Shown piece after piece: positions 9,552-11,186 of a stretch of 32,000 nucleotides of DNA. Positions within the stretch are counted from its first letter, which is position 1. Each line of letters opens with the position of its first letter. The DNA comes from Colwellia chukchiensis (GTDB taxonomy: Bacteria; Pseudomonadota; Gammaproteobacteria; Enterobacterales; Alteromonadaceae), in the NCBI RefSeq assembly GCF_002104455.1, contig NZ_NBOC01000002.1, forward strand, positions 10,369 to 42,368, given 5' to 3'. The position numbers and the translations under genes are program-made. The notes below the pieces were generated by a model. That model worked only from the letters and a program-made list of their open reading frames with translations, did no database searches and had not been told where the DNA came from.

Positions 9552-10439
9552 TTAATTCGTATCATCTCGGCAACTTTCATTTAGAAACTCAAACTCTATC
9601 GTCGTATGCGATAAATGATAGGAAGCTAATTTAGTTGCAACTTCTTGTTTAAGTCTAATTAGGTCTTCAACTTCAAAGTTGTCTCTAAGCTCAAGATGCG
9701 CTGTTAAAACGTGACTTTCACCATCTAGTGACCAAAAGTGCATGTGGTGGATACCATTAACTTCTGGAAATTCCAGTAATGATTGTTTAATTCGTTCTTG
9801 GGTCTCTCTATCTGGTGCCGCTTGAAGAAAAAGCACCAACGTTGATTTCAAGTTTCTAAAAACGTTAAATAAGATAAATAGCGTGAAGCCAATTGATAAT
9901 AAAGGGTCTAAAATTGGCAGTTCAACAAAAAGAAGTACGACAGAAACAATAAGAACAGCAACCCAGCCAAGTACATCTTCAAGTAGATGCCATGTCAGTA
10001 CTTTTTCATTTAATGTTTCACCCGCTTTTAATTTGAAAACTGCATATCCATTCACGGCAACACCGAGTATGGCAAGTCCCAGCATCCCCTCAACTACAGG
10101 CATTTCAGGATTGGACAACCTTGGAATGGCTTCAAATAAAACCCAAATAGAACCAATAATCAAAACAATACTATTTACCAATGCACCAAAAAGTGTAAGA
10201 CGGCGATAACCATAGCTGAATTTGTCTGATGCTTCTTTATCTGAAAAACGACTTAAAATCCATGCAAAGCCGATAGACAGGCTATCACCTAAATCATGTA
10301 CAGCATCTGCCATTATCGCGGTACTGTTGGTAAGCCATCCACCAATAAACTCGATAATAGTAAATGTCACATTCAGAAAAAATGCCCAACCAATACGATC
10401 GCCTTTACCATGCTGATGACTGTGACTATGGTTGTGCAT
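9552..10439 (-). CDS. czcD: Cation diffusion facilitator Zn/Cd/Co exporter (CzcD/ZitB type) with a His-rich N-terminus.
   Basis: 295 aa. N-terminus MHNHSHSHQHGKGD. CDF site motifs are present (AIMADAVHDLGDSLS; TWHLLEDVLGW). C-terminal cytoplasmic domain is present (GIHHMHFWSLDGESHVLTAHLEL). Confidence 0.9.
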   Translation of the reverse strand: MHNHSHSHQHGKGDRIGWAFFLNVTFTIIEFIGGWLTNSTAIMADAVHDLGDSLSIGFAWILSRFSDKEASDKFSYGYRRLTLFGALVNSIVLIIGSIWVLFEAIPRLSNPEMPVVEGMLGLAILGVAVNGYAVFKLKAGETLNEKVLTWHLLEDVLGWVAVLIVSVVLLFVELPILDPLLSIGFTLFILFNVFRNLKSTLVLFLQAAPDRETQERIKQSLLEFPEVNGIHHMHFWSLDGESHVLTAHLELRDNFEVEDLIRLKQEVATKLASYHLSHTTIEFEFLNESCRDDTN

Positions 10440-11157
10440 TTTGTACCTCTAGTACTTTTTTATTTCTTAGTCTTGATACATTCATATTAATCAAGTGACG
10501 TATCACGCGTTGATATATCCAACGTTTTACTCCCGACAAATTAGTACCCTTTTCAAGATAAAACTCATCAGGGGAATCATAAAGCCCAAAGTCGTCATGA
10601 ATACCTTCTTTTTGAATATAGGTATCCTCTCCACGCCAATCCGTACCGGGTGAAGATAAGCACTTTGTTGCAACACCATAACCACAAAACTCACCTTTTG
10701 CTTGGTCAAATTTTTGCTGTAGTGAGCTTAAGTATTGCTCATCCAATATAAAGCCCTCTAAGTTTATCCAGCGTCCATCGAAATAAACTTCCACCCAACT
10801 ATGGATGATGTATTTAGGCGCTAACCAAAACACATAGGTTGGAATAGCACCTTTTTGTAATTGCTGATCAATAGTAAAACCGTGAAAACGACATTGAATG
10901 CCTAACCCTCGCAACAATGCCATCAGCAAGTTGCCTTTGGTATTACATTGTCCGTAACCATCGGATAAAACACTGCTTGCTGAAATATCATCACTCTCAT
11001 TGTAACCAAATAATATTTCATCTTTAACGAATTGGTAGGCTGCACCAATTTTGTTGAAGTTATCCAAGTTTTTCCACCCTCGTTGATTAATGAGAGATTG
11101 GATATTCTTATGTTCAAAATTAACAATTGTCGTATTATTTAAATATTTTTTTGTCAT
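10426..11157 (-). CDS. Cytoplasmic transglutaminase-like (papain-fold Cys-His) protein, the first gene of the MerR-controlled operon. It overlaps the czcD start by 14 nt.
   Basis: The ORF track gives 10426-11169. I prefer the second Met (ATG at 11157) because GGAG lies 7 nt upstream of it and the predicted -10 is at 11187-11192. Transglutaminase-core motifs are present: SDGYGQCNTKGNLLMALLRGLGIQCRFHGF (Cys75) and IIHSWVEVYFDGRWINLEG (His123). No signal peptide. Confidence 0.8.
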   Translation of the reverse strand: MTKKYLNNTTIVNFEHKNIQSLINQRGWKNLDNFNKIGAAYQFVKDEILFGYNESDDISASSVLSDGYGQCNTKGNLLMALLRGLGIQCRFHGFTIDQQLQKGAIPTYVFWLAPKYIIHSWVEVYFDGRWINLEGFILDEQYLSSLQQKFDQAKGEFCGYGVATKCLSSPGTDWRGEDTYIQKEGIHDDFGLYDSPDEFYLEKGTNLSGVKRWIYQRVIRHLINMNVSRLRNKKVLEVQNAQP

Positions 11158-11186
11158 TTTATTCTCCATTCAACTTGTATACTAAC

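Follow-up and report, generated by a model that had tools for sequence, protein, structure and literature searches.

In the textbook picture, a heavy-metal resistance determinant comprises sensors and pumps, with a few helpers in the periplasm. In the window, by which we mean the whole 32,000-nucleotide stretch of Colwellia chukchiensis DNA that was analysed, the gene that precedes a CzcD-type CDF exporter gene codes for none of these, but for a transglutaminase-like protein (TG), which raises the question of what such a protein does in a metal-resistance operon. The features that bear on this question are listed here.

10426..11157, minus strand: TG-like (PF01841) gene, 243 aa, soluble, placed by homologue lengths and the Shine-Dalgarno sequence
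10426..11169, minus strand: 247-aa ORF beginning at an alternative upstream ATG at 11169, the start used in the sequence-only reading
11163..11167, minus strand: GGAGA Shine-Dalgarno sequence, 5 nt upstream of the ATG at 11157 and overlapped by the ATG at 11169
11187..11217, minus strand: MerR/CadR-type promoter, with a -35 box TTGACT (11212..11217), a 19-bp spacer CTATAGTTACTATAGATTC and a -10 box TATAGT (11187..11192)
11194..11214, in the promoter spacer region: dyad operator ACTCTATAGT-t-ACTATAGATT, 9/10 complementary positions
11235..11624, plus strand: divergent CadR/PbrR-type MerR-family regulator, 129 aa, assigned by TIGR02047
9552..10439, minus strand: CzcD/ZitB-like CDF, 295 aa, with a His-rich N-terminus, identified as an ORF and by profile searches
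9488..9518, no strand assigned: hairpin with a 12-bp stem and T-tracts on both strands, predicted bidirectional terminator
2671..2701, plus strand: second CadR-type promoter in the window, TTGACT, 19 bp CTATAGCCACTATAGATTT, TATACT

The sequence-only reading had described a protein of about 245 aa encoded at 10426-11169. This ORF is present, but its start lies four codons too early: most close homologues have 243 aa, with the second ATG (11157) as their start, and because the first ATG overlaps the Shine-Dalgarno sequence, the real coding sequence is most likely 10426..11157. A homology search found 5912 homologues at E<=1e-3, and purifying selection on TG matches that on the exporter (dN/dS 0.058 for TG in comparison with the Acinetobacter plasmid copy, and 0.061 for the CDF). 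Together, the number of homologues and the low dN/dS place the gene far beyond chance. The protein carries neither a transmembrane segment nor a signal peptide (maximum KD19 of 0.97), in line with the cytoplasmic location suggested earlier. Two further features, an anchor in the membrane and an amphipathic helix at the C-terminus, were considered and rejected, since there is no transmembrane segment and the hydrophobic moment is only modest.

The MerR-type promoter that had been proposed for the two genes is supported by the TTGACT and TATAGT boxes, the 19-bp spacer with its dyad, and the divergent CadR-type gene. The product of the latter scores 154.8 bits against the NCBIfam CadR-PbrR equivalog TIGR02047, for which the cutoff is 151.45. 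A standard sigma-70 scan did not detect the TG promoter, owing to its 19-bp spacer, and a search for riboswitches or other RNA elements in the leader gave no Rfam match anywhere in the window. CadR would bind the dyad in this over-long spacer and, once loaded with metal, would realign the -35 and -10 boxes. The realigned promoter would then produce a bicistronic mRNA, with TG followed by the CDF, that runs to the hairpin, which is predicted to end both this bicistron and the convergent czcA. The ATG of the CDF gene (10439..10437) and the stop codon of TG (10426..10428) overlap by 14 nt, in agreement with the earlier coordinates, and a GAGG sequence lies approximately 7-10 nt upstream of this ATG, inside the TG gene. 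The second CadR-type promoter precedes genes for an HMA-short-CDF, czcI, czcC, czcB and czcA (2722..9480), and probably shares its regulon with the TG promoter.

The transglutaminase-core signature, also noticed in the sequence-only reading, was substantiated by a Pfam scan (threshold E<=0.01), in which Transglut_core (PF01841) matched residues 36-138 of the 247-aa ORF with E=2.2e-14 and 54.1 bits, the gathering cutoff being 23 bits. An AF2 model of the protein (pLDDT 78.4, pTM 0.82) was compared with known structures using Foldseek. This returned a transglutaminase-like fold, with TGase-like cysteine proteases and transglutaminases as matches, including 3isr (E=3.8e-6), TglA 9crn, 3kd4, TgpA 6g49 and TG2/FXIII; the probability of the top matches was 0.95-1.0, and 1.0 for 3isr, 9crn, 6g49 and TG2/FXIII. 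In the 243-aa numbering, the triad motifs are Cys71 (YGQC), His119 (IHSWVE) and Glu134 (WINLEG), equal to the GQC at Cys75, HSW at His123 and E138 that had been named in the 247-aa numbering, and in the model Cys71 starts helix 71-84 and His119 is situated on strand 116-126. The other candidate for the third residue, D131 (D127), varies among close homologues, whereas Cys71, His119 and Glu134, as well as His92 and Arg90, are invariant in 81 sequences with 55-100% identity, so that non-conservation of the catalytic residues does not speak against the earlier assignment within this clade. The third triad position (W-x-x-L-[D/E]) is Glu134 in 81/81 sequences, and not the canonical Asp; it would be chemically equivalent to the catalytic Asp of transglutaminases, an equivalence drawn by motif alignment only. 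Judged by profile, motifs and predicted fold, TG is an intact transglutaminase-core protein. Furthermore, the loops QKGAIP, TYIQKEGI and GTNLSG are long, invariant, and common to hosts with different exporters, which is more easily reconciled with a shared substrate than with a protein partner peculiar to each host.

The genomic neighbourhoods of TG were surveyed in the best 80 of at least 592 genomic homologues, and counted over 69 non-redundant genomic loci. Metal-efflux or MerR genes were found within 4 kb of TG at 50/69 loci and a MerR gene within this distance at 39/69, and at 37/69 loci TG is adjacent to an inner-membrane exporter gene on the same strand. A strict 12-mer test detected a CadR-type promoter at the start of TG or its operon at 45/69 loci, compared to approximately 0.9 expected by chance in the windows scanned around these loci, and roughly 8 looser matches lie beyond these 45, including loci without a MerR gene nearby. 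A CadR-type promoter is wired to TG in about three quarters of the sampled loci. Linkage of TG to metal genes recurs in alpha-, beta- and gammaproteobacteria and in Bacteroidota, which decides a test proposed in the sequence-only reading in its favour. The partner differs by clade (CDF, short CDF, P1B-ATPase, czcICBA, or none), and TG can be found after a short CDF or P1B-ATPase gene, before czcICBA, or alone, the stand-alone units, for example those of the Sulfuritalea or Rubrivivax type, having their own CadR-type promoter and housekeeping genes on their flanks. At approximately 50% identity, Roseobacter plasmids show the order MerR-YnfA-sCDF-TG-CDF-CzcN-like, and a Flavobacterium plasmid the order czcAB-Fur-like-TG-ATPase. 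An AraC-family regulator precedes TG at 9/69 loci (Vibrionaceae, Shewanella and others), of which just one has metal genes nearby. The overlap between TG and the CDF gene, from which fixed stoichiometry or a function shared with the CDF had been deduced, is confined to the closest relatives, with gaps of 20-59 nt at the other CDF-linked loci and other partners or none elsewhere, and this deduction is not supported. Given the varying partner, the stand-alone units and the restriction of the overlap to particular lineages, TG is, by its genomic context, a general member of the CadR regulon and not a CDF subunit.

Fusions of TG to other domains are rare, and comprise a SAM-methyltransferase-TG (P0126), an ApbA-TG (P0127) and a TG-HIT protein (P0123). 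They were discarded as Rosetta stones, being too rare and too heterogeneous in context. In locus L096, a UbiE-type methyltransferase gene overlaps a TG of 33% identity, which is a weak lead, and apparent long fusions in the high-GC loci L073 and L077 turned out to be ORF-extension artefacts.

The 2.1-kb cadR-TG-CDF cassette (9485..11624 in the window) is present, 86.5% identical at the DNA level, on at least 28 Acinetobacter plasmids. The sources of the TG-carrying plasmids include farm animals (livestock) and patients (human blood). Five Acinetobacter plasmids have lost TG residues 47-155, and with them all of the catalytic core, through a clean in-frame deletion, but have kept cadR, the CDF gene and the overlap between TG and CDF, indicating that the TG gene is dispensable there.

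With the transglutaminase-like superfamily (3isr, P. aeruginosa TgpA, S. pyogenes TglA, TG2/FXIII), TG has the fold and the order of motifs in common. It differs in being small, single-domain and cytoplasmic, in its C-terminal half (residues 140-243), which is specific to the family, and in an invariant Glu instead of Asp as third residue. Its identity to solved structures is at most 20%, the best PDB sequence match having E=0.2. We know of no characterised member of the subfamily, nor of another transglutaminase-like protein that is tied to a metal regulon. In being a non-transporter gene under the same CadR/PbrR-type activator as exporters, TG resembles PbrD, MerD and lspA/PbrBC. PbrD, encoded in the pbr operon of C. 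metallidurans, binds Pb in the cytoplasm and is the only cytoplasmic accessory protein known from a CadR/PbrR operon. From such accessory proteins TG differs by the absence of sequence similarity, a different fold, and the lack of a Cys-rich motif, and homology to PbrD was rejected after a tblastn search of pMOL30 at 100-150 kb (pbrTRABC and downstream), which gave nothing better than E=0.5. In regulator type, promoter (19-bp spacer, CTATAG-type dyad) and families of exporters, the system agrees with the CadR/ZntR Zn/Cd efflux determinants (Pseudomonas cadA-cadR; czcD/zitB; czcCBA). In the CadR regulons described so far, cadA is present, joined in P. aeruginosa by a zinc-ribbon protein (PMC12301328), but a transglutaminase-like gene is not among the members. 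In our literature search, no paper was found that links a transglutaminase-like gene with czcD, CadR or metal efflux, which agrees with the earlier remark that a role in metal export has not been described; the closest candidates proved to contain unrelated mentions.

It is very probable that TG has a real function within the metal-resistance regulon. Our overall reading of the sequence evidence, to which we assign a probability of roughly 55%, is that TG is a thiol enzyme of the cytoplasm, induced by metal and with a transglutaminase fold, and that it belongs to the core of the CadR regulon, which responds to Cd(II), Zn(II) and Pb(II). Members of the CDF family export Zn, Cd and Co from the cytoplasm, and the CDF encoded here would do the same, with TG acting in the cytoplasm in parallel to whatever exporter the host possesses, and not as a CDF subunit. 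TG would be a thiol-dependent amidase, peptidase or acyl-transferase with a substrate that is common to many phyla. By our guess, this substrate would be a small peptide of the gamma-glutamyl or thiol type, or such a peptide in a metal-thiolate adduct, a metal-damaged protein being less likely, and this catalytic, small-substrate part of the explanation is tentative and falls short of an even chance. An enzyme with a catalytic thiolate is ordinarily poisoned by Cd and Zn, which makes induction by these same metals awkward, and TG would have to be metal-tolerant or metal-activated. Phytochelatin synthase (PCS) and the cyanobacterial PCS-like proteins are papain-like Cys-His-Asp gamma-glutamylcysteine transpeptidases, and PCS is a catalytic-Cys enzyme that works with, and is even activated by, Cd-thiolate substrates. 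TG can be likened to PCS in its papain/transglutaminase structural class with a triad Cys, in its Cd/Zn-response context, and in a size near that of bacterial PCS-like proteins. It falls outside the PCS family, since the Pfam scan (E<=0.01) gave no match to PF05023. A more specific version of the idea, that the TG family is a hitherto overlooked enzymatic branch of bacterial Zn/Cd/Pb resistance, namely a CadR-induced functional analogue of PCS, or a gamma-glutamyl/thiol-peptide amidase, that remodels cytoplasmic metal-thiolates such as glutathione-metal adducts for export by CDF or P1B-type pumps and spreads with the cassettes, is speculative and quite unlikely.

The main rival to this reading, which we consider somewhat unlikely, is that TG is a non-catalytic protein in which Cys71, His119 and Glu134, possibly together with His92, Cys89 and Cys158, bind Zn(II), Cd(II) or Pb(II), so that it would serve as a cytoplasmic buffer or as a chaperone to the CDF or P1B-ATPase. 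All three triad residues belong to the classical ligand types for Zn and Cd and none of them varies; since they would also be ideal for binding these metals, their invariance cannot separate catalysis from metal binding. The gene usually adjoins exporters that draw metal from the cytoplasm, its stand-alone units with a CadR-type promoter would suit self-sufficient protection, and we know of no cytoplasmic Zn/Cd chaperone for CDF or P1B-type exporters, so the niche is free. Moreover, the Cys, the His or both are often missing from more distant members of the family (28-40% identity), from which it follows that the fold can function without catalysis. Most of the triad-less distant relatives are located on contigs too short for informative context. 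Cys89 is kept in 60/62 and Cys158 in 57/62 metal-linked sequences and in only 2/8 of the AraC-linked group, which could be phylogenetic signal. A conserved accessory metal site formed by Cys89, Cys158, Cys166 and His187 was rejected, as Cys166 and His187 vary even among metal-linked sequences. However, a single site in 243 residues would make a poor buffer, and exporters of unrelated structure, or no exporter at all, are ill-suited to a docking chaperone. With just 4 Cys and 5 His, TG has no motif rich in Cys and His of the kind usual in metal-binding proteins, its extensive invariant loops point to recognition of a specific substrate, and the YGQC, HxWVE and WxxL[D/E] motifs match what we take to be the motifs of active transglutaminases (TG2/FXIII). 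Catalysis could also be directed at proteins, with TG as a metal-induced regulatory or quality-control Cys protease acting on metal-loaded CadR, on the His/Cys-rich tails of exporters, or on Cd-misfolded proteins. For the majority of PF01841 proteins in bacteria a cysteine protease function is predicted, and the best structural matches of TG carry that annotation. No other neighbour or regulator of TG is as constant as CadR, and MerD, which resets the MerR switch, provides a model for an action on metal-loaded CadR. Resetting CadR in a stand-alone cadR-TG or promoter-TG unit would seem pointless, however, unless CadR controls other genes, the exporter tails differ by architecture whereas the surface loops of TG are invariant across phyla, and a conserved cleavage motif is not in evidence, which together make a protease of this kind very unlikely.

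The idea of a dedicated CDF partner, produced in fixed stoichiometry through translational coupling as the sequence-only reading had it, draws on the 14-nt overlap and internal GAGG in the window and its closest relatives, and the Acinetobacter deletion, which is in frame and keeps the overlap, would fit a CDF whose translation needs ribosomes coming through TG. Nevertheless, it is extremely unlikely and largely refuted by the neighbourhood survey, since the overlap is not conserved at the other CDF-linked loci and many orthologues have no CDF nearby but a P1B-ATPase, a short CDF, only czcCBA, or nothing; in addition, the CDF is kept on plasmids that have lost the TG core. That TG is found on mobile cassettes and plasmids, and is dispensable on some of the latter, might instead suggest a passenger of mobile metal-resistance islands without a role in metal handling. 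This we find scarcely credible, since TG has its own CadR-type promoter even without a co-transcribed exporter, its linkage has been rebuilt in several gene orders across phyla, and it is under purifying selection equal to that on the exporter.

Thus, we favour a metal-induced thiol enzyme of the CadR regulon, and TG is probably a cytoplasmic and so far unstudied part of heavy-metal resistance. If the link with metals is true, then an intracellular step in the handling of Zn, Cd and Pb has been missed, which would be either a form of thiol-metal chemistry or the first Zn/Cd chaperone for CDF and P1B-type exporters. With TG on Acinetobacter plasmids from farm animals and human blood, the co-selection of resistance plasmids by metals is a practical concern.

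The open reading frame at 10426..11169 on the minus strand (247 aa), which the sequence-only reading had described as a transglutaminase-like gene (here TG), is present, and GQC-Cys75, HSW-His123 and Glu138 lie where that reading placed them. However, the closest homologues are mostly 243 aa long and begin at the second ATG (11157), which has a GGAGA Shine-Dalgarno sequence 5 nt upstream, whereas the first ATG (11169) overlaps this same Shine-Dalgarno. Therefore, we use the 243-aa numbering, in which these residues are Cys71, His119 and Glu134. The proposed profile search matched the 247-aa ORF to PF01841 (Transglut_core) with E=2.2e-14 and 54.1 bits, where the gathering score is 23 (Pfam), and the match terminates exactly at the Glu134 position. 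NCBIfam contained no specific family for the protein, and databases label it only 'transglutaminase family protein'. In an AlphaFold2 model (pLDDT 78.4, pTM 0.82), Cys71 opens helix 71-84 and His119 is located on strand 116-126. When this model was compared with the PDB using Foldseek, as had also been suggested, TGase-like cysteine proteases and true transglutaminases were found, 3isr having the best listed E value (3.8e-6), followed by 9crn, 3kd4, 6g49 and TG2/FXIII; by sequence alone, no solved structure was closer than E=0.2. Thus, profile, fold and Cys/His placement assign TG to the transglutaminase-like superfamily. The alternative third residue of the earlier reading, D131 (D127), is variable even in close relatives, whereas Glu134 is invariant, within W-I-N-L-E. 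By comparison with the W-x-x-L-D motif of TG2/FXIII, which we take to contain the catalytic Asp, Glu134 would occupy the catalytic-Asp position; transglutaminases have Asp here and TG, whose activity is only predicted, has Glu. No transmembrane segment or signal peptide was found (maximum 19-residue Kyte-Doolittle mean 0.97), and the protein is predicted to be cytoplasmic. Overall, the original observation stands, with its start codon and third residue corrected.

TG forms a pair with a cation diffusion facilitator (CDF) gene, and the pair and its surroundings comprise the following features.

Features of the TG-CDF unit and the second CadR-type promoter
10426..11157, minus strand: TG, 243 aa
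9552..10439: CzcD/ZitB-like CDF (Cation_efflux and ZT_dimer; Pfam/NCBIfam), downstream of TG
9488..9518: hairpin, 12-bp stem with T-tracts on both strands, separating the TG-CDF pair from the convergent czcA
TTGACT 11212..11217, 19-bp spacer, TATAGT 11187..11192: CadR-type promoter of TG, inside the 77-bp intergenic region
11235..11624: MerR-family regulator, 129 aa, divergent, upstream of TG (NCBIfam CadR-PbrR)
2671..2701, plus strand: second copy of the CadR-type promoter (TTGACT, 19 bp, TATACT), ahead of the gene run at 2722..9480

The CDF ATG lies 14 nt inside TG, as claimed, with GAGG upstream of it, and the divergent regulator (cadR) scores above the CadR-PbrR equivalog cutoff (154.8 versus 151.45, NCBIfam). 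A long spacer with a dyad is the hallmark of promoters activated by MerR-type regulators, and the MerR-type promoter that had been proposed for TG was indeed found, with a 9/10 dyad, ACTCTATAGT-t-ACTATAGATT, across its spacer. TG and the CDF gene share co-transcription signals, and the promoter would be induced by metal. The second promoter precedes an HMA-domain/short-CDF fusion and czcI-czcC-czcB-czcA (3639..9480), thus the window contains a Zn/Cd island in which two promoters are of the CadR type. The fusion (2671..3630 on the plus strand, promoter included) is 302 aa long, with an N-terminal HMA-like 'MDCPSEE' metal-binding domain and a short CDF membrane domain without the usual cytoplasmic C-terminal domain. 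No RNA elements were detected in the window (Rfam). An extra outer-membrane factor and a CzcI-like 'CHHCGHC' small protein are encoded at 913..2573 on the minus strand, divergent from the second promoter, and an MntP-type manganese exporter gene (12747..13283, minus strand) is located at the other edge, so the metal island spans ~900..13300. At 11667..12698 (plus strand) are genes for an Hg-type MerR (TIGR02051, 139.6 bits, just under cutoff), MerC and a 71-aa GDCCVxC-domain protein, without merA, merT or merP; loci L006-L008 (Psychrosphaera and Paraglaciecola) have this trio beside cadR, too. Elsewhere, a tryptophan-halogenase-family protein, SapC and a TonB-dependent receptor occur together (25480..27764 and 18419..21136), and an IS110-family transposase is present at 30297..31340; such genes are usual for Alteromonadales and fall outside the present finding.

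A scan of one genome per species yielded at least 592 TG relatives, of which the best 80 (55-90% identity) were analysed and collapsed into 69 loci by merging near-identical ones. Neighbours were classified by tblastn with CDF, short-CDF, P1B-ATPase, CzcA/B/C/I, MerR and AraC queries, and representatives were checked with Pfam. The linkage to metal genes, which the sequence-only reading had set as a test, proved to be conserved: at 50 of the 69 loci, genes for metal efflux or MerR regulators lie no more than 4 kb from TG. An inner-membrane exporter directly adjoins TG on the same strand at 37, czc-type RND components are near at 42 and a MerR-family gene at 39; at nine (Vibrionaceae, Shewanella, some Myxococcota and Bacteroidota), an AraC-family regulator takes the upstream place, and at 11 loci none of these gene classes is near. 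The architecture varies by clade.

Architectures of TG loci (<>, divergent)
cadR<>TG-CDF, as in the window: Colwellia, Psychrosphaera
cadR<>shortCDF-TG-CDF-czcICBA: Pseudoalteromonas, Thalassotalea, Catenovulum
cadR<>P1B-ATPase-TG-czcICBA: many Burkholderiales
czcBA-TG or ATPase-TG: Marinicella
cadR<>shortCDF-TG-czcI... and cadR<>TG alone: further architectures

At ~50% identity, conjugative Roseobacter-group plasmids carry MerR-YnfA-shortCDF-TG-CDF-CzcN-like methyltransferase, and a Flavobacterium plasmid carries czcA-czcB-Fur-like-TG-P-type ATPase. The gene most commonly found directly upstream of TG in other genomes encodes a short CDF of ~200-218 aa without C-terminal domain. A YnfA/UPF0060 small membrane protein repeatedly adjoins the MerR regulator in TG operons of Burkholderiales and Roseobacter plasmids (L033, L034, L038, L048, L056, L057; L082, L084). 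In the AraC-type loci (L059, L060, L063, L066, L067, L070, L072, L074, L079; Photobacterium, Shewanella, Vibrio, some Myxococcota/Bacteroidota), a conserved AraC-family regulator whose N-terminal domain is rich in His is encoded ahead of the TG orthologue, which has 56-59% identity and an intact triad; these loci lack the CadR promoter.

The most constant partner of TG is the CadR-type promoter. When TTGACTCTATAG was searched with at most two mismatches in the 300 nt preceding TG or the gene that opens its operon, 45 of the 69 loci contained the element, in 22 of these 45 directly before TG, against a chance expectation of ~0.9 hits in the windows tested. Inspection revealed looser versions at ~8 more, e.g. 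TTGACCTTGAAGTAACTCCAGGGTTTATAGT (L029) and TTGACCTTGTAGCGGCACCAGGCTTTTCAAT (L035), and the loci with looser versions include most of those scored without metal genes. In several genomes the promoter-TG unit stands amid unrelated housekeeping genes (methionyl-tRNA formyltransferase, RIO kinase, TRAP transporter subunit, solute-binding protein), and TG of Marinicella has its own CadR-type promoter although it lies downstream of czcA or an ATPase gene. Therefore, TG itself appears to be part of the CadR regulon and has no need of a co-transcribed exporter, least of all a CDF. The 14-nt overlap occurs only in the closest relatives, with gaps of 20-59 nt at other CDF-linked loci, so the fixed stoichiometry with CzcD that had been proposed from it is unsupported as a family property. 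The proposed metal link thus holds at the promoter level and its specific tie to the CDF does not; judged from these sequences, the link appears to be real, deep and to the CadR regulon generally.

The catalytic-type residues were expected to be conserved, and Cys71, His119 and Glu134 are invariant in 81 sequences of all context classes, together with the rest of G69-Q70-C71-N72-T73-K74, R90, H92, W130, D139 and W174. Among the 26 sequences of at least 65% identity, the loop motifs QKGAIP, TYIQKEGI and GTNLSG are invariant as well. The unit is mobile: at least 28 Acinetobacter plasmids, whose sources are pigs, poultry, cattle, soil and human blood, carry 9485..11575 (2.1 kb, terminator through most of cadR) with 86.5% DNA identity and the same three genes beside an integrase. 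A comparison of the window with one such plasmid gave dN/dS values of 0.058 (TG) and 0.061 (CDF), thus TG is as constrained as the pump. Five Acinetobacter plasmids (e.g. L097:3001-3405, NZ_CP094542.1) have exactly lost residues 47-155 in frame, which removes the whole catalytic core. What remains of TG is its first 46 codons and its last 88, and cadR, the CDF gene and the overlap with the CDF start are preserved. This deletion counts against indispensability of TG; that it is in frame hints, as a single event, that CDF translation may need ribosomes to read through TG. Such a naturally occurring allele without the core is a convenient control.

When representatives of 50%-identity clusters were searched exhaustively, 1075 clusters matched at E<=1e-3 and 109 did so at E<=1e-30. 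In alignment A2, whose full-length representatives reach down to 28% identity, invariance is limited to G69, K74 and L77; about one-third of the aligned sequences have Gly, Ser, Asn, Pro or Ala in place of Cys, and several lack His as well. Many distant members (28-40% identity) without Cys and/or His keep these three residues and the C-terminal motifs, and the few contexts that could be retrieved are non-metal (shikimate dehydrogenase, chorismate synthase, DUF2238); thus, the intact triad marks the metal-linked clade. The distant members without Cys and/or His look like a pseudo-enzyme branch, and the fold itself can function without the triad. In one lineage (P0126, L087:6001-7356), a TG homologue of 49% identity has a UbiE-type class I SAM methyltransferase as an N-terminal fusion, and in a different lineage (L096:4372-5759) such a methyltransferase overlaps the start of a 33%-identical homologue by 4 nt. 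The family may therefore have another functional association, which is not related to the CzcN-like membrane methyltransferase of the Roseobacter plasmids.

The fold, the invariant Cys-His-Glu centre, the promoter architecture, the variable partners and stand-alone units, the strong purifying selection and the horizontal spread are seen in the sequences; a cytoplasmic function that complements efflux is inferred. We favour TG as a metal-induced thiol enzyme, with a probability of roughly 0.55. As an amidase, peptidase or acyl-transferase, it would process a substrate that very different hosts share, the obvious candidate being a gamma-glutamyl or thiol peptide, or a metal adduct thereof; a common small-molecule substrate is favoured because the surface loops of TG are invariant while the adjoining exporters vary. 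These catalytic details are tentative. Phytochelatin synthase, a papain-class Cys enzyme acting with Cd-thiolates, provides a precedent, and a phytochelatin-synthase-like enzymatic step in bacterial Zn/Cd/Pb detoxification seems unlikely.

The triad loss in distant members bears on the mechanism without settling catalysis versus its alternatives. The main one, a non-catalytic metal-binding or chaperone protein with Cys, His and Glu as ligands, is conceivable though doubtful: the ligand chemistry of these residues, the fact that Cd and Zn normally poison catalytic thiols, and the retention of Cys89 and Cys158 mainly in metal-linked sequences speak for it, but the economy of one site per 243 residues and exporter partners that are unrelated to each other speak against it. 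A regulatory or quality-control protease is quite improbable, and there is very little chance that TG is a dedicated CDF partner, given its exporter-independent units, or a functionless passenger, given its constraint.

TG is not a member of the phytochelatin synthase family (Pfam). It is also unrelated to PbrD, known as a cytoplasmic accessory protein encoded in a CadR/PbrR operon: tblastn against pMOL30 (100-150 kb) gave nothing better than E=0.5. Members of described CadR regulons include cadA as well as a zinc-ribbon protein of P. aeruginosa (PMC12301328). Full-text searches, covering a minority of subscription journals, found no paper that ties a transglutaminase-like gene to czcD, CadR or cadmium/zinc efflux, the two nearest matches being incidental mentions only. 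Provisionally, therefore, the linkage of TG to CadR is undescribed, and its novelty would lie in bringing together a familiar fold and a familiar regulon.
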